Notes: generated from the sequence alone by a model not told the origin. A stretch of 32,000 nucleotides of DNA from Candidatus Saccharimonadota bacterium (GCA_965227835.1 OZ245768.1:1140001-1172000); one strand, 5' to 3'. Shown: positions 1,406 through 29,590, counted from the stretch's first letter. Program-made: numbers and translations.

Positions 1406-1672
1406 CTAGTTTTGCTTTTTGTTTAAGGTTTCACTAATATGTAACATTATTCTTTTTTCTGCATCACTAATGTGTGATATTATTACTTTTCTTAAATTAC
1501 AAATAAGATCACCTATTAATAAAATGAAAAAAAATAATGCTAACACAAAAAAAAATTTATTCCCTTCAAATAAGGCCACATGAAGACAAAGAAGTGGTAA
1601 AGATGTAACCACTATTTTAGAAATCAAATTTACTATTTTAGCAATATTACCAACAATACCAAATTCTTCCAT
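1406..1672 (-). CDS. Small membrane protein A, 88 aa, function unknown
   Basis: ORF-track ORF with ATG at 1672 and TAG at 1406-1408. Hydrophobic segments (VTSLPLLCLHVALF, FFFVLALFFFILLIGDLI). Has its own conserved upstream leader and terminator hairpin. Contains no TGA. Confidence 0.6.
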   Translation of the reverse strand: MEEFGIVGNIAKIVNLISKIVVTSLPLLCLHVALFEGNKFFFVLALFFFILLIGDLICNLRKVIISHISDAEKRIMLHISETLNKKQN

Positions 1673-1693
1673 AACAGTTCTCCTAAAGAAGAA

Positions 1694-1772
1694 ACAGCAA
1701 AACTATACGAGATATATAGATTTGCCATTTAAAGGTTTAAAAATTAAAACAGAAAAAGCAAATTTTCTATTC
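1694..1772 (-). promoter_or_regulatory. Conserved ~80-nt upstream/leader box of the small membrane-protein cassettes (copy upstream of ORF A)
   Basis: ACAGCAAAA..TATAGATTTGCCATTTAAAGGTTTAAAAATTAAAACAGAAAAAGCAAATTTTCTATTC is shared nearly verbatim with 2142..2221, 3826..3904 and 4274..4353. Each copy lies directly upstream (minus strand) of a small ORF. Confidence 0.5.
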
Positions 1773-1818
1773 TCGTATATTGATTATATCATATTTTTCA
1801 CATATAAGTCAAAAAAAT

Positions 1819-1837
1819 CCCCGGTCTGGAACCGGGG
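1819..1837. terminator. Stem-loop CCCCGGTCTGGAACCGGGG downstream of small ORF B
   Basis: Same hairpin as 1382..1400. Lies 17 nt past the TAG of ORF B on the minus strand. Confidence 0.55.
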
Positions 1838-1853
1838 AGAGTTTTGTCTTTTG

Positions 1854-2120
1854 CTATCCTGTTGGCATTTCTTGAGAGATAAAATTCTTATCAAAATTTA
1901 CCATTTTATCTATCGTTGATATAGCGATAAACATAATAGAAACTCCTCCTCCGATAAAGCTTGCTATAATTAAATAGTTGAAATTACCATAATCATTTGA
2001 AAACCCATAGTTTATAGCACAGTTCATAAGGTGAAAAATTCCTACAACAATAAGTGATAATCCTAAAAAACAAAAAATACTTTTAATGTTTTCCAAAGAA
2101 ACTAGTGAAGATTTTTTCAT
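1854..2120 (-). CDS. Small membrane protein B, 88 aa, two predicted TM helices, function unknown
   Basis: ATG at 2120, TAG at 1854-1856. Hydrophobic stretches IFCFLGLSLIVVGIFHL and YLIIASFIGGGVSIMFIAI. Eight Gly codons, all GGN (no TGA). Paralog B' at 3986..4252. Confidence 0.65.
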   Translation of the reverse strand: MKKSSLVSLENIKSIFCFLGLSLIVVGIFHLMNCAINYGFSNDYGNFNYLIIASFIGGGVSIMFIAISTIDKMVNFDKNFISQEMPTG

Positions 2121-2141
2121 AAAATATTCTCCTTGGATGTA

Positions 2142-2221
2142 ACAGCAAAATTATATGGATAGATATAGATTTGCCATTTAAAGGTTTAAAAATTAAAACA
2201 GAAAAAGCAAATTTTCTATTC
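2142..2221 (-). promoter_or_regulatory. Conserved leader box, copy upstream of ORF B
   Basis: See 1694..1772. Same ~80-nt sequence. Confidence 0.5.
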
Positions 2222-2371
2222 CTCCATATATTTAATTTTAATTATAAGACAAATAATGTCAAAATTTTTTATTCACAAAACTCCCCATTTTTTTTAACAA
2301 AAAAGTCTAAAAAAAGCTTGACAGAGGGGATAATCTAATAATTGAAGTAATATATTATTATTACTTTTTTT

Positions 2372-3460
2372 ATGCAAGAAATACAAAAAATAATAAACAA
2401 AGAACTATGATATTTAATGAAATATGAATGCAAAAATGATAAAAGATTTATTAAAGAGTTTTTTTGAGATATAATAAAGCTAAGAACAACAATAATGAAC
2501 AAATTATGATTTTGAAAATATAAAAATCCTAACAAAATGAGTGAAAAAATAAAACATTTCTTTGAAAAAGATAGTTTTAAAAATTTTAACCTAAAAGTAG
2601 AAAAAAGATGTTTTTCTATGTTATGAAAAATAAATAAAAATGATTATATAGTTTTTGATGAAGTTGATATAGCAAAACAATACTCAAAGAAGCTAGAAAA
2701 TTTATCTAAAGTAAGAGATTGAAGTACTTGAAATATAGTTTCTTGATATATGTATCATTGAGTAAGTATAAATTGAATTCCTGTAATACTTGAGTATGAA
2801 GATTTAACTAATAAATTTAAATCTGAATATTTTTGAAAATTAATTAAAAAAGTAGAAGATTATACTAAATGAAAGTGAATATATGTATATGATGCTTGAT
2901 ATGATATAGCATCATATATAGAGTTTTTAAATAATAGTGTAAATAGATGGATAATAAGAGCTAAAAAGAATAGGATATATTTTGATTTAAAAACCAATAA
3001 ATATTTGAAATTAAAGGAATTTAAAGATTGAGTTCATAAGGTAAGAATTAATTCAGTTAATGAATCAATATATCTTCATATTAAATCAAATCCTAAATTT
3101 CCTGAACCAATGAGGATATTATCAAATTCAAGAAAAACAGATATAGAAGAATATAAACAAAGACGGGAAATAGAGACAATATTTAAAACTATGAAGCAGG
3201 AGTTTCAGCTTGAGAAACTTCAAGCTAAGAGTTTAATAGTATTTAAAAATTTTGTTTCTACTATACAGTTGGCTATGGCTTTGACTAGGACTATATATAA
3301 AAAGAATAATTCTTTTTGTGAGAATCAGAGGTTTATACTTTCTTCTAGATTTAAATCTAGATTTAGAGATTATACAAAATCTCGATGAATAACTATGAAT
3401 TCTAATTCTCAAAACTACCCACTTTTTATAAAAAGTATACCTATATTTTACTTTAAATAA
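2372..3460 (+). CDS. DDE transposase (DDE_Tnp_1-like), 362 aa from ATG 2372 (alternative starts at 2495 and 2537)
   Basis: Open under table 25 (checked). Candidate DDE residues in IVFDEVDI and YVYDAGYD (the G is TGA). C-terminal Y-x2-R-x3-E-x6-K signature YKQRREIETIFKTMK. The standard track sees only 3110..3388. Confidence 0.8.
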
Positions 3461-3779
3461 AGGGAAATTAAGCTATTTTTAGTGTTTTATCTTTAGTATT
3501 TTATAAATGACTTATTTAAGCTAACTTTATCTTTATAAAATTCAATCAATATAAAATCTCTGTTTTTACTTATATAAAGGTAAAAAATAAAATATAAAAT
3601 ACAAAAAACTGGGTAGATTTAAGCTAATTCTATTGTTAAATTTATATCTTATTGTTTAACAAAGTTGTATAAACCTCCTAAAAAACATATTAAAAATTTA
3701 AACAATAAAAACAACCTACATTTCCCTCAGTTATCCTTATTCTCATATGTCGATTTTATAAAAAGTGGGTAGTTTTGAG
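3408..3779. repeat. MITE-like sub-element bounded by perfect 26-nt inverted repeats inside the IS
   Basis: CTCAAAACTACCCACTTTTTATAAAA at 3408..3433 is the exact reverse complement of 3754..3779. The left copy lies within the last 53 nt of the transposase ORF. The ~320-nt interior is non-coding. Confidence 0.6.
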
Positions 3780-3804
3780 TACCAACAATACCAAATTCTT
3801 CCAT
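3780..3804 (-). pseudogene. 5' fragment of a second copy of small ORF A (8 codons, MEEFGIVG), truncated by the IS
   Basis: Identical to 1648..1672. The reading frame runs straight into the IS right end at 3779. Confidence 0.7.
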
Positions 3805-3825
3805 AACAGTTCTCCTAAAGAAGAA

Positions 3826-3904
3826 ACAGCAAAACTATACGAGATATATAGATTTGCCATTTAAAGGTTTAAAAATTAAAACAGAAAAAGCAAATTTTCT
3901 ATTC
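3826..3904 (-). promoter_or_regulatory. Conserved leader box, copy upstream of the truncated ORF A'
   Basis: Identical to 1694..1772. Confidence 0.45.
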
Positions 3905-3950
3905 TCGTATATTGATTATATCATATTTTTCACATATAAGTCAAAAAAAT

Positions 3951-3969
3951 CCCCGGTCTGGAACCGGGG
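3951..3969. terminator. Stem-loop CCCCGGTCTGGAACCGGGG downstream of ORF B'
   Basis: Identical to 1819..1837. Confidence 0.55.
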
Positions 3970-3985
3970 AGAGTTTTGTCTTTTG

Positions 3986-4252
3986 CTATCCTGTTGGCAT
4001 TTCTTGAGAGATAAAATTCTTATCAAAATTTAACATTCTATCTATCGTTGATGTAGCGATAAACATAATAGAAGCTCCTCCTCCGATAAAGTTTGCTATA
4101 ATTAAATAGTTGAAATTACCATAATCATTTGAAAACCCATAGTTTATAGCACAGTTCATAAGGTGAAAAATTCCTACAACAATAAGTGATAATCCTAAAA
4201 AACAAAAAATACTTTTAATGTTTTCCAAAGAAACTAGTGAAGATTTTTTCAT
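3986..4252 (-). CDS. Small membrane protein B' (paralog of B), 88 aa
   Basis: Differs from B at 5 residues (S->N, V->A, I->T, K->R, V->L), all within the C-terminal 21 codons. Confidence 0.65.
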   Translation of the reverse strand: MKKSSLVSLENIKSIFCFLGLSLIVVGIFHLMNCAINYGFSNDYGNFNYLIIANFIGGGASIMFIATSTIDRMLNFDKNFISQEMPTG

Positions 4253-4273
4253 AAAATATTCTCCTTGGATGTA

Positions 4274-4353
4274 ACAGCAAAATTATATGGATAGATATAG
4301 ATTTGCCATTTAAAGGTTTAAAAATTAAAACAGAAAAAGCAAATTTTCTATTC
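4274..4353 (-). promoter_or_regulatory. Conserved leader box, copy upstream of ORF B'
   Basis: Identical to 2142..2221. Confidence 0.5.
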
Positions 4354-4452
4354 CTCCATATATTTAATTTTAATTATAAGACAAATAATGTCAAAATTTT
4401 TTAGTTTCTAGATTTATCCTCTTGTATTCCTTTAAAAATAACTAATTTTTTT

Positions 4453-5589: not shown

Positions 5590-5745
5590 AAGCTAATTTT
5601 TCAGTCTCTCCTTAAATTCCTTATTTATAGTTTGCAAAGAACTAAGACTCTCTTTTGAATTAAGAATATATTAAACCTTATGTCTTAATAGAATAATCTT
5701 ACAGAAGTTCATACAAATAAAAAGTTTATATTACATTAATAACCT

Positions 5746-7746
5746 TTAAACTAAAATTTTAAAATACATTATCAAATCATCAAAATTAACTTTTTCCAAC
5801 TCAACTTTTAAATGATCTCAAATTTTATAAAAAATATTTTTTCTTTTATCTTCAAACTGCATTAGTTTTTCGTTATAAAAAAAATTATTTCTGTTATTAG
5901 ATTTTTTTCAATTTTCTAGGCTTATAAAACCCTCTGACCCATTTTCTAGAGTTATAAAAAGTCACCTTGTATTTACTCCAGAAATATATGTGTCAAATAC
6001 TTCTCAAATTTTATTTTCATAAAATTTACATATGTAGAAATCTCTTGCTTTGTATTCCAAAGATTCAGCATTTCTTTCTTGTTTTGAGCAATTATCTGCT
6101 ACATTATCTAAAATAAGCTTGTAGTTATTTAAAGCTTCTTTTGAGAGTTTGTTTTTAATTTTATCTTTTATTATTCTGTGTATTTGTAAATCAGGGTATC
6201 TTCTTATAGGTGAAGTAAAATGGCTGTAAAAATCAATTCATAAACCAAAATGTCACTTATTTTTTGTAGAATAGTTAGCCTTGGATAATGATCTTAAAAT
6301 TACTTTCTCAATTATTTGTCTGCTTTTATGGCTTTTAATTTCCTCTAAAAGCAAACTAAATTCCTTACTGTCATATTTTTTAAACATAAAATTTATTCAA
6401 AATAAATTTAAACTATCCTGTAAAATATTAATATCATCTAAACATGGTTTTTCATGAACTCTGTATAAAAAAGGGATATTTGAGAAAAGTTTTCAAACAC
6501 TTTGATTTGCTGAAACCATGAAAACTTCTATAAGTTTATTTGATTCAAATCTAGGCTGTTTTTCTATTCATAAAACTTCCCTTTTTTTGTTTAAAATAAT
6601 TTTTAATTCTGGGAATTCAAAGTCTAAAGTTCATGATTCAATTCTATTTTTTTCAATAAGATATTTTATCTCCCAAGCTAAATTGATATTATTTTCTAAT
6701 TCTTTATCTAGAACTCAATCTCAAAAAAGCTTATCTCATATATTTAAAACTTTATTTTTCTTATATTTATTAGAAAACTCATATTTTTCTTTTGCTCAAA
6801 TTTTATCAACTTCTTCATATGTAAGTCTAAATTTTGACTTTATTAAACTTTCATATACTTCTGCTTTTTTTATATTTCAGTTTTTCAAGACTAGCATTTC
6901 GCATGTTAAAGTTAATTTTTCGGTATTTGGATTTAAACTACAAAGATTATTTGATAATTTTTCTGGTAACATAGGCAATACCCTATCTGCTAAATATACA
7001 GATGTAGCTCTTTTTAGTGCAATTTTATCAAGACTGGAATTTTTGGAAACATAGTTTGAAACATCAGCTATATGAACATATAGTTTATAGCTTTGTTCGT
7101 CTAACTTTTCTACAGATATTGCATCATCTAGATCTTTTGCATCTGGAGAATCAATTGTAAAAGTAAATAGATCTCTTAAATCTTTTCTTGATTTTTTGAT
7201 TTCACTTTTTATATCAATTGTTTCTTTAATTTGTTTTACCTCATTTTCCACACCTTCTCCAAATTTTTCCCTAAATCATGCTTCTAGTATATAGGCATCT
7301 ATATACTTGTTTTTTGCACTTCAAAAAACTTCAATTATCTTTCATTTTGGAGATTTTTTATCATCCCAAGAAACAACTTTTACTCACACTAAATCTCAAT
7401 CTATTGCTTTTTTGAAATATTTTTCTGGAACAAATATATCGGTTTGAATTTTTTTGTTTTTTACTAAAACAAATCCAAATCTATAATAATTATTTTTTGA
7501 TTTTTTTGATTTTTGAAAAATACCTATAAATACATCTCTTTTTCTTTTTAAGATTTTTTTTATTACTGCTTCTTCTCTTCCTCTGAAAATTTTTACTTCT
7601 GCTAATACTTCATCTCAATCTAGTGCTTTTTTTCTATTTGAAAAATGTGTGAAATATCATTTTTTTGTACTTTCTACATCTACAAAACCAAATTCTCATG
7701 ATTTTGAAGAGTGATATATTCAAATTATGTTTTGTTTTTCTTTCAT
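5746..7746 (-). CDS. rnr: Ribonuclease R (RNB family 3'-5' exoribonuclease), 666 aa
   Basis: ATG at 7746, TAA at 5746-5748. No in-frame TAA/TAG over 667 codons (checked). RNB motifs [24 protein letters not shown] and [27 protein letters not shown]-terminal cold-shock-like region. The track sees only 6877..7251. Confidence 0.92.
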
Positions 7747-7832
7747 TTAAATAATAATTTTTAATTATTCTTGTTAATTAGTTTTATAAAAGAAATTTAA
7801 AATATTTCAATGATGAGTTTTTTAGAAAATAC

Positions 7833-7861
7833 TTGTATATATAAATTTAATATGATAGAAT
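7833..7861 (+). promoter_or_regulatory. Candidate promoter for the 355-aa membrane protein gene
   Basis: TTGTAT (7833-7838), 17-nt spacer, TAGAAT (7856-7861). Lies 34 nt upstream of ATG 7895. Confidence 0.35.
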
Positions 7862-7894
7862 TTTTATGTATTTTATTTTAATAACAAATTTTTT

Positions 7895-8962
7895 ATGAAT
7901 TTTTGAGATATAGCAAATATAGCTAATAGTGTTAACAATATGGCTAACAAATGAAATAATAATTATTGAAGCAATAATGAAAACATTAATAAAACTTGAG
8001 TTAGCAATAAAAATAGTAATTTTTCTAAAAAGAAAAAAGTTCCTTTTAAAGAACAGCTAAAAAACACATTTTTTCTTTTAAAAAATACTTTTAAAATTTT
8101 AGGGAGAAATAAAGATATAGTTAAACCCACAATGTTTTCTGTATATTATAGTTTGATATTAAGAATATGATTTTATGTAATGATAGTATCATTTGTTTTA
8201 AATGTTTTATTATGATTACTATTATTATTGATATGGATTATAGCTTTTATCTATAAGTTTTTTTATTTAGCTAAACAAAAGGCTAATCAATCATATTTAG
8301 TATATAATATAATCTCTTGAAACAATATTTCATACAAAAAATCATTAGATTATACAAAAAATGATTTTAATAAATATAAATCAATTGCATTTATAGATAT
8401 GGCTAGATGATACATAGATAAAGCAAATGATTGAAAAGGTGGAGGGATTAAATGAATGTTAATTGGTTTAATTTTATCATGACTAGAGGAAGTTTTAGAT
8501 TTAATTAGTAATTATTTACTACCTGCAATGGTAATTGAGAACAAAAGTATGCTTGAATCAAAAGATGATTTAAAAGCTGTAAAAGACAATGTGCCCCAAA
8601 CTCTTGCATGAGTTTTTTGAATAGATTTTTTATGAAGTTGTATTAATAGTTTACTTTGATTAACATACCTTATTATGATAGTAGCTTCATGATTAATTGG
8701 TTGGTTAATCTGATATTCTTCAGAAAATATATTTATGGCAATGTTGCCTTCAATTATAACTTTTGTGATAATATCTCTTATTTCTATAGTAATACTTAGA
8801 TTAGTAGATGGTGTAAAAGTTGTTTATTTCACAGTTTTTTATACAAGTATAATGAAGTCTGAAAGTATCACAGATGATTTAAAGGATGAATTACAAAATT
8901 ATTTACAATTTAAAGAAAAAAATGAAACAAAGAGTATGATAAATGAAGAAAGATTGTGATAA
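7895..8962 (+). CDS. Polytopic membrane protein, 355 aa, Asn-rich N-terminus, function unknown
   Basis: Open under table 25 (checked). Several hydrophobic helices (FYVMIVSFVLNVLLGLLLLLIWIIAFIY, LTYLIMIVASGLIGWLIGY, AMLPSIITFVIISLISIVIL). Ends TTG TGA TAA. Confidence 0.7.
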
Positions 8963-8994
8963 TATTTTGTTAAAAAAATTGATTAAATATAAAA

Positions 8995-9025
8995 GCCAGA
9001 AACAAAAAAATTTCTGGCTTTTTTT
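8995..9025 (+). terminator. Rho-independent terminator
   Basis: GCCAGAAA-loop-TTTCTGGC followed by TTTTTTT. Confidence 0.75.
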
Positions 9026-9029
9026 GTCT

Positions 9030-9057
9030 TTGATATTTTCTAGATTATAGCTATATT
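9030..9057 (+). promoter_or_regulatory. Candidate promoter of the HNH nuclease gene
   Basis: TTGATA (9030-9035), 16-nt spacer, TATATT (9052-9057). Confidence 0.3.
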
Positions 9058-9084
9058 GTATTATATATCTTTTAAGAATATAGA

Positions 9085-9828
9085 ATGCCAAAATTTAATG
9101 ATTTAGATATGAATAGTGATAAAGATTTAACATATTCAAAAGCTATTGAACAGGTTATGCTAAATAACGGCTTTTATGCTACTCTTAAATTACTTTATGA
9201 AAAAATTTGGGATTACAAAGATAAATCAAATATTGTAGGGAAAACACCAGATATGACTATTCAAGAAAGAGTACAAAGAGACCCTAGGTTTACAAGGATT
9301 GCAAAAGGAGTTTATGCACTCACTGCCTTTTTAGAAAAAGTTGAAAAAGAAGATTTAGGTTTTTTTACTGTAAACAAAAAAGGAGATATTGTTTTCAAAA
9401 AGAATCCAGATTTTGAAACAAGGGTTTTTGAACAGACTGAAAAAATCGTTCAACAAAAAGCAAGAAAAGGACAATCATATTTTAGGGATGTACTTTTAAA
9501 AGAAATGCAAAGATGTCCTATAACAGGAATTGATGACAAAAGGCTCTTGGTTGCAAGTCATATAAAACCTTGGATTCATAGTGATAATGAAGAAAGAGTT
9601 AACTCAAAAAACGGTATATTACTTTCTCCATTGTTTGATAAGCTTTTTGATAAAGGAATTGGACTTATTACATTTACAACTGATAAAAAAATTTTAATTT
9701 CAAATAAACTCTCAAAAGAAAATATTGCCAGATTAAATATTTTTCCAAATAAAACTATAGAGAATTTAGATATTATTGGAAGAGAAAAATATCTTGATTA
9801 CCATAGAAAGTATATATTTCAATGATAA
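9085..9828 (+). CDS. HNH endonuclease (HNH_2-type domain) with an N-terminal HARE-HTH/winged-helix-like domain, 247 aa
   Basis: C-terminal GQSYFRDVLLKEMQRCPITGIDDKRLLVASHIKPW...NGILLSPLFDKLFDKGIGLITF matches the HNH_2 nuclease pattern. N-terminal AIEQVML..GKTPDMTIQERV..DPRFTRIAKGVYAL resembles HARE-HTH. There is no internal TGA and all 11 Gly are GGN. Ends TGA TAA (one extra Gly under table 25). Confidence 0.8.
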
Positions 9829-15492: not shown

Positions 15493-17265
15493 TTATTGGC
15501 TTCTCATCTGATCTAGAATATTAGCCTTTTGTTCATCAGAAAGACTTTCTCACTCACTATCAGCTTGTTTAGCATCACGAGCATTTTGCTTTCTTGTATC
15601 AGCTCTTTTAAATCGTTCAGATACTTCAAGCTGTTCACTGGTAGTAGAAAGATTAATATCAAGATTATCAAACCCTGAAATATCAATGATTCCACTTCCA
15701 CCATCCATGAACTCAACCCAAACTGTATCACCGATCAAAGTTGGAGGAACTTCATGTGAAACACTAGATGAGGTTATAAATAATTTATTATCTATACCAT
15801 CAAGCATTATGTAATAGAAAGTTTCTCCATTTTTGATATCACTTGAAAAACGAACGACATCACCGGTATATGTGTAGCTTTGAACAGCTCCATCAGGAAC
15901 AACTGATCTACCATTGCTTGCAATTTCACTTCTATATGAACGCAAAGCATCACGGATATTATTCCCTACACCGACAATACTGTAGTCTTCAACGGACACC
16001 ATAGCAATCATCTTGATCAGTCCACCTTTGTCTTTAAGTGACATTACATAAGTTGGAATACCAGAGATATTGTAAAGAATAGGAAATGAAGTTGCATAAT
16101 TTTTTTCCGGAACTTTTCCCCGTGCAGAATCTTGTGCTTTAGTTTCAGTTGCACCAGCCTGCTTGTACCAATGACTTTCTTTAGTACGAGTATCAACTAA
16201 GACAAAACCAACAGTAGAACCATCTCTACCAATAGAAGTAATACCAGAATACCAGTAGGATTTGCCATCTTTGCCATATACAAGAGACATACCAGGAGTA
16301 GTTTTCAATACACCTTCTTTGGAACCAAAACCACTTTGATTCAACCAGCCTTTTCCAAACTTACCCCAGTTATCAAGTTGGGTAATGATAAAACTCTCGG
16401 GTTGTATTCTATCAATCCATTCGGGTGCATTTTCAGGTTCATATAATTCGCTGATTTTACCTGTGTTAGGATTGACTGTAACAACACCAATTGCATCACT
16501 ACCAAGATAACCAACTTCTTTATCATAAACAGTAACTACCCAAAAAGGCATACCATCATCACGAACCTCAAAGGTATAATCATAAAGACCATAACCCATA
16601 TATCCATTGGTATATAGATGTCTTTTTAGATTATCACCAAAGTATGCATGGTTTTGATAACGAACAGAAATCTTTTTACCCTCAACTTGAGTTACATATT
16701 CAACATCACGGTCATTTGTTGCAGATACTTTCACGTATCCAGGAGTAGAGTCAAATCTAAGCCATTTCCAAAAACCAGAATGAACCACAGGAGCAACCCA
16801 ATAAAGATCACCATTTATTTGTTGAATACTAAATTTACCCAACTCTGCACGACTACCTAATGCATTTGGTGCTTCCCCAAGAACTACTTGACCAACACGT
16901 TCAGCAACACTCTGATCCACAATACGCATCTGAGTAATATCTACAGGAGCTATATCTTGGGTAAATACACTTTCTCTGACATCACCTATAAGTCTGTGGT
17001 ATTCTTTTGCATTAAAAGGACTCAAGGAAAATATAGGCATAATAAAAAGAAAGAGAAAACCAATACTAGATATAACAATACCACCTATTCTATGAGTGAA
17101 ATAGGAAATAATACCACCAGATAGTATTAGGATAAAAGCCCAAGTTCCAAAACCATAAGCCATTACAGGCATAGGAAAGTAGTAAGAAAACAAAAGAAAT
17201 AATAAAGTTAATATTACCCCAGAAATCTTAGAGAATGTCCCTAGAGTTTCTTTGAAATATTTCAT
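15493..17265 (-). CDS. Membrane-anchored protein with a large extracytoplasmic domain, 590 aa under table 25 (571 aa if TGA 15550-15552 were a stop), function unknown
   Basis: ATG at 17265. Three N-terminal TM helices, then a W/Y/G-rich soluble domain. 57 Gly codons are all GGN, and the only TGA is codon 572. G+C is about 38-43% on sampled lines versus 12-30% in neighbouring genes. GAGGA RBS 8 nt before the ATG. Confidence 0.85.
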
Positions 17266-19666: not shown

Positions 19667-19861
19667 CATTCTACAAAAAAACAATTTTTTGTAAATTTTT
19701 GGCTTGGAATAACTAAACAAAAAATTATCTAAAAAATGGTTATTTTTCTTCCAAAGAATCCCATTTTTAAAACTATCCTTGATAAATTTATAGTAAATTA
19801 ACTCGTAAATTAGACTATTTTGAAATACAATTTTAATTAAAAAATAATTCTTTGTTGCTTG

Positions 19862-19916
19862 TCAACAGAGGGCTTTAGCCCTTTGATATTATAAGAATTT
19901 TATATTTTTGAAAAAA
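19862..19916. repeat. REP-like palindromic intergenic element, copy 2 (best-preserved)
   Basis: TCAACAGAGGGCTTTAGCCCTTTG (imperfect palindrome CAGAGGGCT-TT-AGCCCTTTG) plus ATATTATAAGAATTTTATATTTTTGAAAAAA. Flanked by two 24-nt boxes, ATAGTAAA(T/A)TAACTCG(T/C)AA(A/G)TTAG, at 19790..19813 and 19942..19965. Confidence 0.65.
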
Positions 19917-20000: not shown

Positions 20001-22091
20001 ATGGAAATATTTAAAAAGAATTTATTTAAAAATAAGTTAATACTAACCTCTATTTTATCACTTTTTATTTTCATAATAATCTTTTCTCTACCTAAGTTTT
20101 TTATAATCCTAGATAAAAAAATATCTTATTATTTTTTAAAAAATCAAAATAAAAATTTTGAGGTATCAAAAGAAATAGTAGTGGTAAATATTGATGATTT
20201 ATCTATATCAAAAATATGAAGTTTTCCATTTTCTAGAGAAGTTTATTCTACGCTTGTAAAAAACCTAGATGAAAAAAAAGCTTGAGTAATAGCTTTTGAT
20301 ATAATTCTGTCTGATAATTGACCAGATAAAAAAGTGGATGACAATCTATCTTCCAGCATATTTGAATCAAAAAAAGTAGTACTTTGATCAGCAATAGTAG
20401 ATAATTGACTAGAATCTATAATACCCCCTTTGAATAAATTTCTAACTTGATCCACAAAGTACTGATTTTTTACACCAAACATCCATAAAATATCATGAGA
20501 ATCTTATTCTTTTTCACCAATAAAAAGGTTAAATATAACAGAAAAACTAGAAGATTTAAGAGTTAGAAACTCAAAAAAAGATTTTAATCACTTTTCTGTT
20601 GAGATATTAAAAAAATATTTCAGTAGAGAAAATATAAAGTATTACAAAAACTCTATAGAAATAATACCTTGAGAGAAAATACCCTATTCAAATGCTAAAA
20701 ATAAAGAAATTTTAATTAACTACCTCCCAAATAAAAAATTTAAAAAACAAATATCACTTTCAGATATATATTTCAAAGAATGAAGATTTGAAAGCTTTGA
20801 TTTTGAAAACAAAATAATTCTTCTTTGAGCCACAGCAAAAGGTTTAAAAGATATATTCAACACCCCTAATTGAGCTGATTTTTGAGTTTATGTCCATGCA
20901 AATATACTAAATACCATTTTATCTGGTAAATTTTTAGTTCTATTCAATGAAAAACTAGAATGGGCTCTTTTAATTTTAATTATAATTTTGGCTGTTTATT
21001 TCAATTTAAGTAATAACAATAAACTTGTAGTTATATCAAATTTGGTTTTATTTTTCTCATATATAGCTTTATTTAATATTCTTCTTTCACTTCAAGTTTG
21101 AATAATGCTTAATTATCCTGCATATACTATATTTGCTTTTATTATGGCTATAACTATTTCAAACATAGCCAAATACCTAACAGAAAACAAAGACAAAAAA
21201 AGAATGCTTGGGGCACTTAGTGAATATATATCAAAAGATATAGCATCTGAAATACTAAATTCTTCATGAAATGTAAATCTATCGGGAGAAAGAAAAAACA
21301 TATCTATATTTTTCTCTGATATTGAAGGTTTTACAACTATTTCTGAAAAGATGAATCCAGAAGAATTAGTTGAATTTTTGAGAGAATATCTGTGAGCTAT
21401 GAGTAATATAATAATGGATGAAAGATGATTTATAGATAAATATGAATGAGATGCTATTATGGCATTATGGTGAGTATTTGGTCACGAAAACAAATCTAAT
21501 TATGATAATTGTATTTCTGCTTTGAAACAACAGAAAGCTTTAGAAAAACTAAATGTAGCTTGGGAAAAAATATTTGGGCAGAAGCTAAATATTAGGATGT
21601 GATTAAATTTTTGAGAAGCTATTGTTTGAAATATATGAGCTAAAGGAAGAAAAATGGAATTTACAGCTCTTTGAGATTCTGTTAATTTAGCTTCCAGACT
21701 TGAGTCTATAAACAAAAAATATGGAACAAGTATATGTGTTTCTCAAAGTGTTTATAATAACCAAAAAGATAATTTTGAATTTAGATATTTAGATAAAATA
21801 AGAGTAAAAGGGAAAGAAATAGCTACTGATATATATGAACTAGTATGAGAAAAATCTCTTGTATCTGATTTCAAGATGGATATTGCAAGAAGGTTTAAAG
21901 AAGCCATATGATTTTATTTGAAGAGGGATTTTGGGAAAGCTAAAGATATATTTCAAGATTTATCAAACTTGTGAGATAAACCAAGTAGTGTTTATTTGGA
22001 TAGGTGTATTATGTATACAAAAACTCCACCACCTGAAAATTGGGATGGAGTTTGGAATATGGATTCTAAGTAGAGTAAAGCTTATAAAATA
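20001..22091 (+). CDS. CHASE2 sensor domain / class III adenylate-guanylate cyclase, 696 aa as read in frame; apparent 1-nt frameshift near the 3' end
   Basis: N-terminal TM, periplasmic CHASE2-like region ([29 protein letters not shown]), a TM cluster, then cyclase motifs [38 protein letters not shown] and [13 protein letters not shown]. Frame 0 checked to 22020. After the A4 run at 22019-22022 the conserved-looking tail [16 protein letters not shown] lies in another frame (ends 22072). Confidence 0.85.
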
Positions 22092-22130
22092 GATTTTATT
22101 ACAATTTACCCTAAATTTTAGTATATGCTT

Positions 22131-22154
22131 TCAACAGAAGGCTTTAGCCTTTTG
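22131..22154. repeat. REP-like palindromic element, copy 3 (core only)
   Basis: TCAACAGAAGGCTTTAGCCTTTTG, just downstream of the cyclase gene. Confidence 0.6.
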
Positions 22155-22234
22155 TCCATTGGTCCATTTCTGATTAGATCTAACTATAACCCTCTTTCAG
22201 CAAAACCTTACCCTAACTTTATGGAACAGCCCTC

Positions 22235-22328
22235 AACCTAACCTTCTACATCTATACCTCACCCCCAAGCCCCTCTCCTCTAAGGAGAAGGGAGTAGAAC
22301 AGAAGGAATAGAATATAAATTACTATTA
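22235..22328. repeat. Left arm of the ~90-nt GC-rich inverted repeat bracketing the pilin cassette
   Basis: Outer block 22235..22268 matches the reverse complement of 25019..25052 at 32/34. Inner block 22295..22328 matches the reverse complement of 24965..24998 at 34/34. The centre GCCCCTCTCCTCTAAGGAGAAGGGAG is self-complementary and diverged by indels. Confidence 0.9.
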
Positions 22329-22438
22329 TAAGAGAGAAAACATAGATGATAGAGCAGATGTGGATAAGATAACTAAAAACAAATTAATAAGTTCATAAGA
22401 TTTTATATTTTTATGAGGTAGCAAAAATATATAAATCT

Positions 22439-22678
22439 TTACTTTTCATCCCTATCTTTTCAAACAGATGATAGTATTTCAAATATTTTATTTTTTACCA
22501 TTTCAGGAACTTGAGAGTAGGAGGAAAGATATTCTTTGACTTTTTTGTAGTAGGATACAATCTCTAAAACAGGTCAAAGTATTTTTATTAATCTAAAAAG
22601 AAAAACTCACAAAAGAGTTCAAATTATAGAAACAAATATAGAAAGTACTATGTATAGTATATCAAGAGAAGTCAACAT
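22439..22678 (-). CDS. Small membrane protein, 79 aa, function unknown
   Basis: MLTSLDILYIVLSIFVSIIGTLLGVFLFRLIKILGPV.. has one or two TM helices and 4 TGA. Frame checked. Last gene of the cassette. Confidence 0.55.
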
Positions 22679-22721
22679 TTTATTGAAAATTTAAGATTAA
22701 AATCTAGGATTCTTTCTTCTT

Positions 22722-23216
22722 CTAACTATCTCCTTTTGCCTCTTCATCTTTTATATCTTCAATAGATTTAATAATATCTAGATCCAAAGTTTTTACAATA
22801 GTTTTTATATGTTCTTCTCAATATATGGTTTTTACTAGTTTTTGGTTTGTAAAAAGAGTCAGACTTGGTGTTTTGGAAATGCTGTATTTTTTTAAATCTT
22901 TCAAATCAATATCTGACATCTTGAGAGCTATTCATCAAGACCAAGCTTTAGCCATTAAAACAGGCATTTGTATTAAAGCATCTTTATAAAATTCAGAGTT
23001 TTTTTCTGTAAAGATTATTATAGAATGTTTTGTGAAGGTTTTTTCTTCTCATGTTTGTTTGTCTTTGAAAGTACTACTTTTTGATTTATCTATATGAGCT
23101 TCTAAATCTTCAATTTTTTTTATTACCAAGTTTGATTCTGATAGTTTTTTTGCTCATGTAGCCACAGCATCATTTTTTATTTTTATTGCTTTTTCTTTAA
23201 GAGCTTTAAAATCCAT
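22722..23216 (-). CDS. Thioredoxin-fold-like protein without a CxxC motif, 164 aa
   Basis: ..HSIIIFTEKNSEFYKDALIQMPVLMAKAW...SKTPSLTLFTNQKLVKTIYGEE.. resembles the thioredoxin beta-alpha-beta core with the cis-Pro TP(S/T)L strand, but has no redox cysteines. Frame checked. Confidence 0.4.
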
Positions 23217-23308
23217 AGTAAAAGTTTTTAATTTTTAAGTTTTTATATATCAAAAAGATTATATCATAAAATTTTTTGAAAAACAAGATTTGAGAGAGTT
23301 TTTATATA

Positions 23309-24592
23309 TTATCTAATAAACCAAGAGCTAGCAATATTTTCATATCCCCGACTTCAGTCCCACCATCATTTATTTAATCAAGAGGAATCTATTATAAAAT
23401 GCCATCTACTATCTTTATTGTTATTGTCACCACAATACCGTATATCAACATCAGATATAGTATTATAGTGACCTCAGTACATCAACCGTGAATTTCAACA
23501 ATTTTTATTATCTAATCAAGAAACATTTGATCTGTTAATGAATAAGTCATTTTCAATGCTATGAGGATATCAAGTTATATTATTATGCATTATATCTTCT
23601 ATCTGATTCTTGAACCGTGGTTCTAGTACTGAAATCCATCTTCAGTCTGAATATCTATGATGCCATTCTTCCCATCTATTTCAATTAGTTTGACAAGCTC
23701 AATTTTCTCCAAAAACTTTTAGTGGACATCATCACTGATCTCTAGTAGTTGTTCTTCAATTGTTATAATCATTTACAGGTCATGTGTTTGTAGCAACTAA
23801 TTGCCACCCCCCTCCATCAGTACTCATATCACAATAAACCTCAAATTCATCATTTCAGCTTGGATTTATCTTATAAATTCAATCTCAATTATCTAAGCTA
23901 GATTCTAGTATCCTCTTACAACTAGAATTATATATTGATTTTATTAATTCACTTCAACTTCAACTAATCTTATCAATATCATCTATATGGGATATATATT
24001 CTTCTGGTGTAGTAGCTATATCTAATTCTCAATTATCTTTTATCTCTCATATCTCTTGTACTGGTACATTTAAATTATCTCAACCCCCAGTTAATATTCA
24101 TAGCTTCTTTCAACTTACCTTAACTTGTCTGTCTGCATAATCTATATCATTAGATAATACTTCTCTTCTATTATGTAAACTTACAGTTTCACCTGTTTCT
24201 TCTAGTAATGCCATTAATTGAAAGTTTTTTCTATTGTCTGTAGCATAGTATGAAAAATATGTATTATCTAGTGGGTCTTTACCTTCTTTATCATATTTAA
24301 TTTTTTTTAGTACTTCTTCTCATGCATATCCTTGATATGCTATAGTATCTCAACTAGTTTTAACTTCTATATAGTCATCGGGTATTGGAAGTCTTCATTT
24401 TGTTAGTGATAGTTTTAATCAGTCTCATATACTTTCTAGTTGTACTGTTCTATTTGTATCTCTTACTCATGATAGGTAGTCTGTATAGCTTACAAATCAT
24501 ATTGTTCAGATTATAGCTAATATTGTTACTACTACTATTAGCTCTACTAAGGTGAATGCTTTTTTTGGTTGGAGGGTTAGTTTGTTTTTCAT
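23309..24592 (-). CDS. Type IV pilin-like protein (prepilin N-terminal cleavage/methylation motif) with a C-terminal fibrinogen-like YCDxxxxGGGW domain, 427 aa
   Basis: N-terminus MKNKLTLQPKKAFTLVELIVVVTILAIIGTIGFVSY. C-terminal half SSCKRILESSLDNGDGIYKINPSGNDEFEVYCDMSTDGGGWQLVATN. 428 triplets checked, with many TGA=Gly. Confidence 0.85.
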
Positions 24593-24782
24593 TTGAGGGG
24601 GAAGTTAAAGGTTAAAAGTTTAAAATTTTTTTATAAAAATTTCTACTAGGCAAAGGGATGAAGCTTTCTGCTGAAAGGATATAATGTAATATGGTACAAA
24701 TGGTTAAAGCCATCTGCCTAAAGGAATATATTAAATTTAGGATAATTTGCAATTAAGATTTATTTTGCAAAAATCTTACTAT

Positions 24783-24905
24783 GCAAAAGGCTGAATGCAA
24801 ATATTGTTAATTGAGCAAAGGGCTAAATGCAAATATTGTTAACGGGCAAAGGACTGAATACAAATATTGTTAATGGGCAAAGGGCTAAAGCCCTCTGTTG
24901 AAGGG
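24783..24905. repeat. Tandem array of about 3.9 copies of a ~31-nt unit upstream of the pilin gene
   Basis: Units are GCAAAAGGCTGAATGCAAATATTGTTAATTGA, GCAAAGGGCTAAATGCAAATATTGTTAACGG and GCAAAGGACTGAATACAAATATTGTTAATGG. The last unit, GCAAAGGGCTAAAGCCCTCTGTTGAAGGG, is an inverted REP-like core. More degenerate copies lie at 24651..24740. Confidence 0.85.
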
Positions 24906-24964
24906 AAACAATAGATTAAAAAATAATTTATAGAGTAAAATTTATTTTATTATTCTCTACTCTG

Positions 24965-25052
24965 TAATAGTAATTTATATTCTATTCCTTCTGTTCTAAT
25001 CTCCTCTAAGGAGAGGGGTTGGGGGTGAGGTATAGATGGAGAGGGTTAGGTT
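24965..25052. repeat. Right arm of the GC-rich inverted repeat bracketing the pilin cassette
   Basis: See 22235..22328. Confidence 0.9.
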
Positions 25053-25179
25053 TTGGGTTAGAATGAGTTATTCCTCAGATTAGGTTGAAGCTTTACTCAG
25101 AAATATTCAGGCTTTGGCTTATTTGAATTAAAGTGAAATCTACAAATCAATAAACCGCTAAATTTTTTTCTATTACTCC

Positions 25180-27099
25180 TTAATTATTCAAAAGTATTTT
25201 TTCCTCATTCTCACTAAAAGATATATCATATATACCATTTTGATTAACTACAGTTATAACTCCATCTTTTTCTACAAAAAATCATATTATTTTTGAATCT
25301 CTAGATTCTATTTGTCATAGATATTTCATAGAAGTAGTTTGTTTATAAAATCTAGTATTAGGCTTAAATATCCATATTTTATCTTCAAGTAACATATATA
25401 TATAATTCAAATCATTCCTTGCCATCATTTCTACATTTGATTCACTCATTCTCTTGTAATTATCTGGAAGATCATTTAAAGCTATATTTTCAATTCTATA
25501 AGGAGAACTATAAAACTTTATTACAGATAAATCATCTCTAAGAATATAAATTCAACCATCAATAGCTATACTCAATATAGACTTATCACCCATATCCTCT
25601 TTTTTTAAATAAGGTTCTGCTTTTTTAAAATTATTTCAACTTCTAGAATGCTTAAAAACTTGGTTAATTTCTCATCAGACTAAATAAATATTATTTGCAT
25701 AACTTTTGAGACTCCTTGCTTCTTGCCAAGTGTCTTGGTTTAAAACATCTCTAAACGAAAAACTACCCGATTGTCTAAATTCTATTACTTTTCATAATTT
25801 TGTAAGCAAAATCAAGTTTCATTTTAGCTCTGTAACATCTATATATTCATCTTCTCCTAATTCCTCAAAACTATAGCTTTGGGCCTCTTGATCATTTAAT
25901 ATAGGTCAAACCACCAAGTTTTTAGTAATCAAATAAAGTTTTTTATCAACTCTTAAAATCTTAACAAAATCTTTTACATATTCATAAGGAATTTTGTTGA
26001 TTAAACTTTTATCATCAGCTTGCCACTGTTCTACACGATTAAATGTCTTTTTTATTACTGCTATTTGTTCCTCTAAGACTTTTATATCATCCAAAAATAT
26101 CTTCTTGCCTTTTAGTTCTCTTATTATATCTTCACTAGATTCTATATTTAAGTTAAAAAGCTCTGGATTCGTGTAATTATCACTAGCAGTAGTTTTGTAT
26201 CTCTTAGCATTTTCAAGCAACATTAAATTCTCTTCATTATTTAAATCTTTACTTACACTGGATACAGCTCATGATAAAATTTGGAACAAAAGAATACTTG
26301 CGACAAATATTCAAGACACCAAAAGCAAATTTTTTACCAACATAGATTTTTTATCAAGCCATTCTTCAAAAATTTTGAAACATGCCACAGATAATTTTAT
26401 CAAATTATTATCTATCAATTTCAATCATATTTTTCAAAATTTCTCTAAAACCTTATTTTTCTTCTCTTCTTCCTGGGAATCTTTTGAATACCTTATAGCT
26501 AAACTTCAAATATTTCTAGATAAACTCTCACTGCCTAGTATAAGTTCAATATTTTTGTTTATTTTATCTATATCACCTAGAGAAACAGAATCTGTAAAAT
26601 CACTATAAGAAAGATAATCTAAAAGCCTAGATGGTGCCATGACTAAAATATCCAAGTGTTCAAGTTTTCATTCAAATATATAAGAAAATTCTTTTTTGTT
26701 CTCATTTTTATCTGTTATTTCTATTGTCTCATTTGTTTCTTTTATCAAGTACAGAGAAGATGATCATATATTTGAAAAAATAAAATCATCTTTATTTAGT
26801 ATAGATATAAGTACATTTAAATATTTATCGTTTTGATTATCATTATCGTTTTTTGAAACATATGACTTTATTACACTGTTTATTTTCTCAAGAGCTAAAC
26901 TAAAATCCTTATAACTTCACTTAATACTTATTTTGTCTATTATGAAATCTAATATTTTATTTTCTATAATATTTGCATAATTTTCATCATTGGAATCAAT
27001 AACCATAAAAAAGTCCAGTTTATAATCTAGACTTATATGTTTTATTATTATTTTATTTGGAAAACCTTTTTCTATCTTAAATATATTGTGTTCAAGCAT
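25180..27099 (-). CDS. Single-pass membrane protein, 639 aa; degenerate PP2C/SpoIIE-like N-terminal domain (tentative) plus an extracytoplasmic domain
   Basis: 640 triplets checked. N-terminal DFFMVIDSNDEN.., NVLISILNKDDFIFSNIGSSSLYLIKE.. and LDILVMAPSRLLDYL follow the spacing of PPM phosphatase motifs but lack the metal-binding Asp/Gly residues. TM helix LLLVSGIFVASILLFQILSGAV. The C-terminal ~350 aa look beta-rich. Confidence 0.7.
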
Positions 27100-28047: not shown

Positions 28048-28413
28048 CTATGAAAAATTATCAAGAATTAACTTTACTATAAACCACGAAAGAGAAGCTA
28101 AGGCAAAACCCATAATCGAAGCCACTATTGTATCTCTTCATTTTGTTTTATCTTGTTGTAAAGCACCAAAAAGTATCTTGTATGCTCAAACTATTATAAA
28201 TATCACAGCTACACTAGCTGCTATACCCATAAAAAAATTTATAGCATAAGTTATCATATTTGGTATATCTTCAAATCCTATATCTCCCCTTCTTAAATCA
28301 TCTCAATTATCACTTCAAAGTATCCCTCAATCTAAATCATTAGAATAAATTCTATTAATTAAAAGAGAGAAATAAACAAAAAGTAGACTAAAAATTCTTA
28401 TTATGTTTTTCAT
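28048..28413 (-). CDS. Type IV secretion system pilin (TrbC/VirB2-like, CPR-type), 121 aa
   Basis: Signal peptide MKNIIRIFSLLFVYFSLLINRIYS, then two hydrophobic helices separated by a short charged loop (NFFMGIAASVAVIFIIVGAYKILFG..QQDKTKGRD..IVASIMGFALASLSWFIVKLI). Frame checked. Confidence 0.6.
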
Positions 28414-28431
28414 TTTTAATAAAATTAATTT

Positions 28432-29154
28432 TTATTTAATTAAGTCATAATTATCTATTCAAGTTTTCATTTCAGTAAAATTATCAAGTCTAGGGTTATA
28501 ATAATCTATTAAAAAGCTTACAAGTTCGCTTTTACTCAGTTCTTCAGCTTTTACTCACATATTTTCTATTCATGTTTTTATAGAATTTGATCTAGAGCTT
28601 AATTCTTTCTTGGTATTGCTAAAATTTCTTAATCAAGCTTTTATGGTTGCTATATCTACTCAAGAGTTAAATATAGAATTCCAAAAAGATTTTACTGGTC
28701 AAAACATTGTATTGTCTCTGACAGAAGTATTATCAAGATTGTCATAAGGGACTATTATATAAAATTCTTTTTTCATTATTTGAGCAACTTCTATAAGTTT
28801 CTTTAAATATCATATATACTCATAAGTTTGATTTTGTAAAAGAGTATTTTCCTGTTTTAGAGCTTTTTCTTCTAATTTTTGCAAATAACTATCTATATCA
28901 AGTTTTTTTGATCTAATAAGTATTTGAATTGGGAACTTTAGTGTATTTAAAAATCTTTGGAAACTAACTATTATAGCATCTTGTTCTTCAGATGATTTAA
29001 GTAAAAAATTAATTGAAGAGCATTTCAAAATTATTCTAGCACTTCAATCTTTCATTAAAACTATATTATCTCTAATACTACTAAAAGCCAAACTCCTTTG
29101 GGTAGAATTATCAGCTAAAGGCTTTTTGCTAGATTTTACAGAATTTTTACTCAT
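28432..29154 (-). CDS. VirB4/TraC-family N-terminal domain protein lacking the ATPase domain, 240 aa
   Basis: FSSIRDNIVLMKDGSARIILKCSSINFLLKSSEEQDAIIVSFQRFLNTLKFPIQILIRSKKLDIDSYL...KKEFYIIVPY is, from memory, the typical start of CPR/Firmicute VirB4-like ATPases (~800 aa). No Walker A/B motif. The ORF ends at TAA 28432 and the pilin gene starts 18 nt later. Frame checked. Confidence 0.55.
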
Positions 29155-29173
29155 ATTTTTTTGTTTGTATTAA

Positions 29174-29590
29174 CTATATTTTACTTAATTTTTCTTTTAA
29201 CTCGTCCAGTTTCTCTTTTTTATCTTCTAGATTAACTGATTTTTTATCTTCCAAAACATTTTGTGTCAAATATCATATTTCCATAGGTTCAAAACTATCT
29301 GTTCATTTTACCCAAATTTTAGGGTCTCCATTTATGGATAATCTTATCAAATTTAGTATAAATGGCACAAATGTCATTTCGCTGTGTTTAAATAAAACAA
29401 CCATTAAAAATATCAAAAATATTAAAACAGAGGGGACCAAAGATATTTCTAATCAAACACTAGGAGCTAATCATTTTTGTGTCATATAAGCTAAAGCTCA
29501 TCATATCATAAGTATGATAAGTTGCCTTAGGCTAAATGGTCATATTATGGGATCTTCGTTTTCTATTTGTACAGGTATTTTGTATTGCAC
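29174..29590 (-). CDS. PrgI-family (VirB3-like) T4SS membrane protein, 138 aa, probable GTG start
   Basis: (M)QYKIPVQIENEDPIIGPFSLRQLIILMIGGALAYM.. followed by a second TM helix and a K/E-rich tail. GTG at 29590 is the first plausible start after an upstream in-frame TAG. Frame checked. Confidence 0.55.

Follow-up and report, generated by a model that had tools for sequence, protein, structure and literature searches.

A pilin gene with a fibrinogen-related head region between inverted copies of a REP-like intergenic repeat in a code-25 bacterial genome

The window analysed here, a stretch of 32,000 nucleotides (Candidatus Saccharimonadota bacterium, GCA_965227835.1, OZ245768.1:1140001-1172000), contains between positions 22235 and 25052 a gene for a type IV pilin-like protein with a fibrinogen-related head region, which is enclosed, together with two small genes, by inverted copies of a GC-rich repeat hereafter called A. 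The first-pass annotation of this DNA had proposed a transposase-less element bounded by terminal inverted repeats (TIRs), or a recombination cassette, mobilising an adhesin. The best-supported picture, which we hold with moderate confidence, is that of pilin cassettes with variable heads, which form a recombining family and have at their borders a repeat that resembles repetitive extragenic palindromic (REP) sequences and bacterial interspersed mosaic elements (BIMEs). The proposal that a mobile element of a new kind is present is not upheld. The locus would be one expression cassette of a multi-copy, modular type IV pilin family with heads similar to the fibrinogen-related domain (FReD) and to intelectins. 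Recombination or gene conversion between loci would hold a constant module of about 1.25 kb near-identical, while the head ends (about 160 codons) and the downstream genes, wholly different in each cassette, would be swapped among cassettes. The two presumed TIRs would be copies of A, a lineage-specific REP/BIME-like repeat that is present at cassette borders and elsewhere and serves as target for an insertion sequence (IS) of family IS110. Finally, the near-identity of the two arms would result from a recent recombination or conversion tract of about 110 nt, by which A of the upstream type entered the resident downstream A.

The pilin gene (23309-24592, minus strand, 427 aa) is open only when TGA is read as an amino acid, and contains 32 in-frame TGA codons. 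Under table 11 the region is left with short open reading frames (ORFs) only; with TGA taken as sense, coding is dense across the window. TGA is the commonest glycine codon in neighbouring genes and outnumbers GGN by 32 to 12 in the pilin gene itself. These codon counts therefore indicate genetic code 25 (TGA = Gly), which fits the window and under which the conserved motifs of the adjacent cyclase gene also come out right. Public records P0001-P0007 and P0121, from the source contig and from a relative deposited at ENA, were translated with TGA = Trp and contain 9-10% Trp. For this pilin such a translation amounts to 32 wrong residues, and it weakens homology and structure tools alike; for the window pilin, the structure model discussed below is based on its TGA = Trp sequence.

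At its N-terminus the protein displayed the prepilin signal KKA/FTLVELIVV, in agreement with the (G/A)FTLxE pattern with Glu at +5. This signal, already pointed out in the first-pass annotation, was confirmed by Pfam N_methyl (26.6 bits, cut-off 21.2) and NCBIfam TIGR02532 (23.5 bits, cut-off 16.3). The predicted model adopted a pilin fold, with a helix at residues 15-63 followed by strands; the predicted local distance difference test (pLDDT) gave about 87-96 across most of residues 20-270, with about 60 at 131-150, and the model was confident for most of residues 1-277. The fibrinogen-like YCDxxxxGGGW motif was also recognised as proposed, both by NCBIfam NF040941 (GGGWT_bact, the fibrinogen-like YCDxxxxGGGW domain; 58.2 bits, cut-off 30, residues 224-266) and by Pfam Fibrinogen_C (PF00147; 27.7 bits, cut-off 22, residues 235-269 only). 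Likewise, phmmer matches to XEEL/intelectin, FIBCD1 and FGL1 were limited to residues 223-283 (E = 1e-5 to 1e-4, with XEEL at 1e-5), and Foldseek comparison of the model with FReD structures aligned about 45-60 residues at E 0.18 or worse.

A more complete view of the head was provided by P0008, a family member that is correctly translated. Its model (pLDDT 77) showed a C-terminal domain that aligned over about 220 columns with FGL1, MFAP4, angiopoietins and ficolins (E = 4.5e-7, TM score about 0.5). Since P0008 models as a complete FReD, the head of the family can be considered FReD-like. In the sequence of the window pilin, this likeness is seen in the constant subdomain and in a conserved C-terminal strand: the head ends in WFIR, like the strand MIFVR conserved in the family. 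The variable head had no homologue, either in the top 120 family hits or when 5.8 billion proteins were searched, and no match was obtained in any of the fetched loci. The last 160 or so codons presumably encode the ligand-binding part of the head, for which an adhesin or host-recognition role may be proposed. Neither a prepilin peptidase nor pilus assembly machinery was found within the window; one locus of the relative (L005) carries T2SSE and T2SSF genes.

The family comprised at least 401 members in the 5.8-billion-protein search, mostly from Gracilibacteria, and some of their records already bear the NCBI name for this domain. The top match, P0001, is the window pilin itself, translated with TGA = Trp, on its source contig of 1,489,121 bp; a second paralogue, P0005, is located on the same contig. 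P0002-P0007 shared about 92-95% amino-acid identity with the window pilin over residues 1-263 and were unrelated to it after YCDMSTDGGGW. The post-motif regions (about 140-180 aa) of 100 family members fell into 47 sequence clusters.

Six cassettes were recovered at different loci (L002-L006 and L013) of the relative, ENA assembly ERZ25074195. Among these, L003 corresponds to the same locus as the window, with type IV secretion system (T4SS)-like genes, a 639-aa gene, the pilin gene and a CHASE2 cyclase gene at 89-97% DNA identity, and L014 is a co-occurring strain variant of it. At L003, the pilin has a different head (P0003) and a gene for an AI-2E transporter replaces the 164- and 79-aa genes of the window. 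The DNA of these two genes was found instead, at 97.6% identity, at L002 11368-12333, downstream of the paralogue P0002, in an unrelated locus beside a ribosomal protein operon. The window and L003 differ exactly over the interval bounded by the GGGW codons (23804) on one side and the left arm's outer edge (about 22217-22230) on the other. With a different head and cargo at the orthologous locus of the relative and the 5' module at other loci, the earlier term "recombination cassette" was a fair one. Two of the cassettes are interrupted by ISs: L006 in its upstream part and L013 in both its upstream A and its coding part. In the latter (5700-9500), the upstream A carries an IS110 element, and an insert about 1.2 kb long, associated with a DDE_Tnp_1 gene call, disrupts the constant coding part. 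In loci of more distant Gracilibacteria (L008 and L009), the pilin genes were compact and free of flanking repeats, so that the cassette organisation is lineage-specific. No description of this organisation was found in the literature; a 2019 paper on "hypervariation in a Gracilibacterium" was considered as a precedent and rejected, since it deals with an unrelated PTD-repeat gene.

The constant module of about 1.25 kb consists of A, the upstream region and codons 1-263. Homology to the cassettes of L002, L004 and L005 begins where the right arm ends on its outer side (window positions 25050-25052) and breaks off at 23804 or 23795. The constant coding part displayed 94-98.5% nucleotide identity among six aligned copies (window and L002-L006), which we place inside the orthologue range of the two genomes (89-97%), and the L013 copy was 92-94% identical according to BLAST. 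The break between constant and variable parts is sharp to a few bases and directly follows GAT(T/G)GAGGGGGGTGG; in L006 it comes earlier, after TATTGTGATATG. At this place the GGGW codons (23804-23815) are spelled GGA GGG GGG TGG, although TGA is the usual glycine codon, and a G-run thus falls exactly on the junction in the window copy and in L002-L005.

Identity along the module was mosaic. L003 and L004 were 98.5% identical in the coding part and 84% upstream, and the upstream region of the window was closest to that of L004 (97.4%) versus 87.6% for its positional orthologue L003, within an overall range of 84-97% among cassettes. This mosaic identity was taken as exchange between loci. In every copy examined, the constant 5' module was retained together with the upstream region, at least in its promoter-proximal part, and silent partial copies of a variable region, of the pilE/pilS type, were not encountered in the fetched loci. 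The upstream repeat array reported in the first-pass annotation is indeed present, as a 31-nt tandem repeat at 24783-24889 (3.4 copies, score 156). The number of units, 3 in the window, ranged from 1 to 4 among the cassettes of the window, L002-L006 and L013, and could tune expression. Its assignment to tandem interspersed guide RNA (TIGR) arrays or to CRISPR was rejected, as spacers and an associated protein were both missing.

Alignment of all copies established the anatomy of A. It starts with two to four tandem C-rich units of about 20 nt, ACCTCACCCTAACCCTCTCC with 6-7-nt spacers, continues with a GC hairpin, e.g. CCCCTCTCC-TTTGG-AGGAGAGGGG, and closes with TAGAACAG, in the form (A/T)AGAACAG, and a tail rich in purines. 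With IS insertions removed, a profile search detected 22 copies in the approximately 150 kb formed by the window and the loci of the relative. The hairpin was kept in all 22, with varying stem sequence, and the mean folding energy was -13.8 kcal/mol versus -5.4 for shuffles (20 copies folded far better, z -3.2 to -6.0). RNAalifold returned no structure from a MAFFT alignment of A cores, which is not structure-aware. Copies occurred in both orientations, in arrays and solo, and the arms are not unique to this locus. Those without a FReD pilin were recorded in the rpmA-rpsG and rpsG-rpsL intergenic sites of L002 (3543 and 4422), near tyrS in L005 (4215) and, four times, in L015. Next to the pilin genes, the downstream A was inverted in the window, L002 and L003 and direct in L004 and L005; in L002 and L003 it was only 74-75% similar to the upstream A.

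As a short GC-rich imperfect palindrome that is intergenic, dispersed, found in both orientations and clustered, A resembles REP and BIME sequences in its general features. Rfam yielded tRNA only at the gathering threshold and nothing at E up to 5 in 21900-25400. Exact arm patterns were sought in public contig collections, where they gave one chance match in genomes (Thermoguttaceae), one unrelated contig of normal GC content in metagenomes and none among viral contigs, so that the source species is absent from these collections. Motifs of G-quadruplex type (four runs of at least three G) were looked for in 120 kb and were all located on the G-rich strand of A arrays (window 25015-25057, L002-L005) save one, at L004 11665-11718, which was taken as tRNA-like. 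Canonical loops of up to 7 nt were found only in L004 (2398-2420) and L005 (4199-4223); the quadruplex potential of the window copy is weak, with loops of 2, 17 and 9 nt.

An IS110-family element of about 1.34 kb, with a DEDD transposase of 340 aa, is present in the relative. All five of its copies (L004, L006, L013, L014 and L015) were inserted in the hairpin of A at CCC-CT-CTCC, in either orientation of the palindrome and flanked by CT. The copy in L014 occupies the very A that corresponds to the left arm of the window, and the source contig has a record of a transposase with the identical protein sequence. Both window arms contain this target in unoccupied form (CCCCTCTCC at 22270-22278 on the left, GGAGAGGGG at 25010-25018 on the right). 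Such targeting of a conserved intergenic palindrome, a known trait of IS110 elements, supports calling A REP-like; as the arms behave like REP/BIME repeats in this respect too, the original statement that no element of this kind had been described was too strong. The 5' non-coding region of the IS contains paired segments, GAGTGAGATAG and CTATCTCAC, of the kind that a bridge RNA should have.

A second dispersed intergenic palindrome, B (CAAAGGGCTAAAGCCCTCTG), was present in about 30 copies in the same 150 kb, often alongside A. Sites were recorded in the window at 1323, 19863, 22132, about 24697 and 24878, and many more in L002-L015. B is sometimes followed by a conserved AT-rich stretch of 35 nt (1319-1376 versus 19859-19916, 81%). 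B may serve as operator or terminator; a sigma-54 or sigma-70 promoter was also considered and rejected by inspection, on the basis of spacing.

Regarding the arms themselves (Table 1), the block counts given in the first-pass annotation were reproduced exactly: the outer block 22235-22268 is the reverse complement of 25019-25052 at 32 of 34 positions, and the inner block 22295-22328 that of 24965-24998 at 34 of 34. Each block of 20-34 nt occurs exactly twice in the window, where shuffles predict none, and the similarity reaches about 22230-22338 and 24955-25061. Other details were only partly retained. The centre, described as self-complementary, forms a hairpin that is imperfect in the left arm and reduced in length in the right, and the announced composition of about 50% G+C in a background of about 22% applies to the outer two thirds (52-54%), the arms as delimited having 40% and the window 25.4%. 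Whole-arm RNA folds (111 nt) were not significant (z -0.9 to -1.9), in contrast to the central hairpin alone.

With its right arm, the constant 5' module reaches its outer limit (nhmmer E = 7.8e-14). The left arm contains a 24-nt inner-block sequence that was otherwise found only in pilin-upstream copies of A, set between two different surroundings: outside, up to 22217, the DNA is orthologous to L003 and L014, and inside, from about 22340-22363 on, it is like the tail of the downstream A of L002. The resident element on the outer side is 86-97% identical to L003 13034-13175 and to L014, and 77% identical over 235 nt to the rpsG/rpsL intergenic element of L002. Being orthologous with the relative, this outer region was not brought in by the cassette. 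The simplest account would be that the left arm is a gene-conversion or double-exchange tract of about 110 nt, through which the resident downstream A received sequence from the upstream A of the cassette itself; alternatively, it could be left over from the recombination event by which the 3' module was replaced.

Table 1. Features of the pilin cassette and its borders (window coordinates)
Feature	Position	Strand	Remarks
Resident generic element 3' of cyclase gene	22129..22217	+	B palindrome 22132-22154 and degenerate C-rich A units
Left arm, inverted ~110-nt patch of pilin-upstream-type A	22230..22338	+	Full hairpin 22270-22292
79-aa gene, predicted membrane protein	22439..22678	-	Co-oriented; shares the 97.6% L002 match
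164-aa accessory gene, no recognisable family	22722..23216	-	Co-oriented, 3' of pilin gene
Variable head-coding module, codons 264-427 and stop	23309..23803	-	Orphan sequence ending WFIR
Constant coding module, codons 1-263	23804..24592	-	Prepilin signal, pilin module, linker, first FReD subdomain through YCDMSTDGGGW
Pilin upstream region	24593..24964	-	31-nt tandem array, B palindromes (24878-24900, ~24697), promoter-like site 24752-24725
Right arm, pilin-upstream-type A	24965..25061	-	C-rich units, short hairpin TCTCC-TTAGA-GGAGA, then TAGAACAGAAGGAATAGAATATAAATTACTATTA

Near-identical, inverted arms are also what the ends of a transposon look like, and the arm-to-arm unit could be a non-autonomous, TIR-bounded cassette moved by a transposase encoded elsewhere. 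Such an interpretation would be in line with the occurrence of the same ensemble (5' module, pilin gene, 164/170-aa and 79-aa genes, inverted A) both in the window and in L002, which are unrelated loci of different genomes, and with the presence of a DDE transposase gene in the window (2372-3460). Yet, the two outer flanks have no k-mer of 5 nt or more in common that would point to a target site duplication, the downstream A is direct in L004 and L005, solo copies of A occupy non-pilin intergenic sites, the outer region of the left arm is syntenic with the relative, and no empty site was found among the three strain versions of the locus (window, L003 and L014). These observations make a TIR transposon very unlikely and led us to abandon the transposase-less element of the first-pass annotation. 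Moreover, the downstream A of L002 is only about 75% similar to its upstream A, and for the sole IS linked to A, this repeat is the target and does not make up the ends.

The same three versions bear on another possibility, namely that the arms are crossover sites of an invertible 2.8-kb segment, whose inversion by an invertase or by homologous recombination would alter pilin expression or read-through coupling. All three showed one orientation, and no invertase or recombinase family was detected among the window proteins scanned. The region of about 370 nt upstream of the gene, with its promoter-like site, is situated inside the arms, so that inversion would leave the pilin joined to its promoter; in other cassettes, the downstream A is direct or matches poorly. 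Inversion is decidedly improbable on these grounds, even though inverted repeats of about 100 nt with blocks of 34/34 and 32/34 identity, flanking genes convergent on the cassette and a left-arm patch of upstream-type A, the trace expected from inter-arm exchange, are all compatible with it.

Conversely, the bracketing could be meaningless if A were a generic REP-like or terminator-like sequence of which two copies flank the pilin operon by chance. A is indeed dispersed, in both orientations and at non-pilin sites, and a generic A already lies 3' of the cyclase gene in the relative. However, A formed the outer edge of the module in seven out of seven cassettes (at 25050-25052 where no IS interrupts it) and was found downstream in five of the six examined, and the breakpoint of the locus replacement coincides with the edge of the left arm; pure coincidence is therefore unlikely. 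In addition, the inner block of the left arm is pilin-specific, A lacks the U-run signature of terminators, and the upstream A of L002 is located between divergent gene starts.

Several points nevertheless weigh against the picture of a recombining cassette family with REP-like borders. The part of the pilin model covering residues 278-427, derived from the TGA = Trp version, has a pLDDT below 50. Homologous recombination as the mechanism is suggested by mosaic identity of sequences. The loci of the relative were picked via their pilin and IS110 proteins, which biases the sample towards A-containing regions, and the distribution of A is that observed in the 150 kb mentioned above, with the context of the P0005 cassette lying outside them. 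Finally, the enrichment of A at cassette borders, for which the downstream side of L013 was left out of the count, fits a role more specific than that of a passive REP.

One such role may be put forward tentatively. A arrays could be cis-acting borders of an adhesin-switching system in an episymbiotic or predatory bacterium belonging to the Candidate Phyla Radiation (CPR), the hairpin and the G-rich, quadruplex-prone strand starting or delimiting recombination. This conjecture, which we regard as rather doubtful, is raised because quadruplex-type motifs are nearly confined to A, the replacement breakpoint falls at the edge of A and the left arm is an A of the upstream type. Equally speculative is its further consequence, according to which head-plus-cargo modules would be swapped between pilin cassettes, changing host-cell specificity, and the inverted pair would record an exchange or inversion. 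A parallel would be the G-quadruplex upstream of Neisseria pilE.

As to the remaining genes, the two small co-oriented genes of the first-pass annotation were both found (164 and 79 aa), without support for the thioredoxin fold attributed to the former: Pfam and NCBIfam returned nothing and the best PDB match had E = 0.37. On the other side of the pilin gene, upstream of the 639-aa gene (25180-27099), a T4SS-like gene set (28048-29509) is about 91% conserved in L003 and includes T4SS_pilin as well as TraC-like and PrgI-like genes, according to precomputed Pfam matches of the relative. Farther away, a 609-nt stretch (1648-2256) is repeated at 3780-4388 with 99-100% identity on both sides of the DDE_Tnp_1 gene at 2372-3460. 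Each copy holds an 88-aa ORF (1854-2120 and 3986-4252), and a perfect 26-nt inverted repeat was noted (3408-3433 and 3754-3779). The whole region (1648-4388) looks like an IS inside a duplicated segment. An island of 36-38% G+C (15500-17000, in a window of 25%) falls on a 590-aa ORF (15493-17265, minus strand), for which Pfam gave no match.

Gracilibacteria are uncultured bacteria with reduced genomes that are thought to live on other cells. Saccharibacteria, to which they are related, attach to their hosts by means of type IV pili. A pilin family that exists in multiple copies, near-invariant in its shaft and promoter module and unrelated in its head ends, is a candidate for host-range determination and variation, and the flanking A repeat offers a handle to find all cassettes and to check head exchange. 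Furthermore, a REP-like family and an IS110 element that targets it are documented here in a code-25 CPR genome.

A CT core is a hallmark of IS621. The arrangement found here is comparable to that of REP/BIME sequences and IS110 elements such as IS621 of E. coli and ISPpu10 of Pseudomonas putida: A is a dispersed GC-rich imperfect palindrome, and its IS110 inserts at a fixed position of the hairpin, with a CT core. As described in PMC11208160, IS110 elements choose their targets through a bridge RNA, and a preprint (bioRxiv 10.64898/2026.03.19.712850) places all mapped ISPpu10 insertions in copies of one conserved intergenic sequence. A differs from REP/BIME sequences in several respects: its sequence is unrelated, with no match in 5,426 E. 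coli genomes or in Rfam; it is composite, the hairpin being preceded by two to four C-rich units and followed by a purine-rich tail; and its copies in this sample are strongly concentrated at the borders of a single gene family. A RAYT-type transposase, at which no search was aimed, did not turn up. A kinship with BoxC-type repeats of E. coli was rejected for want of any match in the same genomes.

At the protein level, the window pilin is comparable to the FReD and X-type lectins (ficolins, FIBCD1, FGL1 and intelectin/XEEL): its residues 223-283 match XEEL, FIBCD1 and FGL1, and P0008 models as a whole FReD. Unlike in these FReD and X-type lectins, only the first 50-60 or so residues of the domain are recognisable in the window pilin, the remaining 160 being orphan. 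Pilins that combine an N-terminal class III signal and pilin module with a grafted binding module are an accepted concept; for the modules of PilB (vWA) and PilC (lectin) of Streptococcus sanguinis, display at the pilus tip was proposed (PMC8179133). The window protein resembles these modular pilins by its prepilin motif, its predicted pilin fold and its FReD-type head region. It differs from them in that the putative pilus subunits of its family have a fibrinogen-related/intelectin-like head and are encoded by several gene copies, constant in front and unrelated at the head ends.

Finally, pilE/pilS conversion in Neisseria, the PilV shufflon of R64 and Piv inversion in Moraxella are known cases of recombination-based variation of pilins or adhesins. 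In contrast to pilE/pilS, copies of the present family keep their constant 5' module and none of the loci examined holds a silent partial copy. Unlike in the R64 shufflon and Moraxella Piv, no invertase was detected among the window proteins scanned, and the pilin gene contains no sfx-like repeat. The variable parts are, moreover, unrelated to each other instead of being variants of one sequence. What the window family has in common with them is a conserved N-terminus joined to a variable C-terminus, the presence of several copies, repeats at the borders and mosaic identity.

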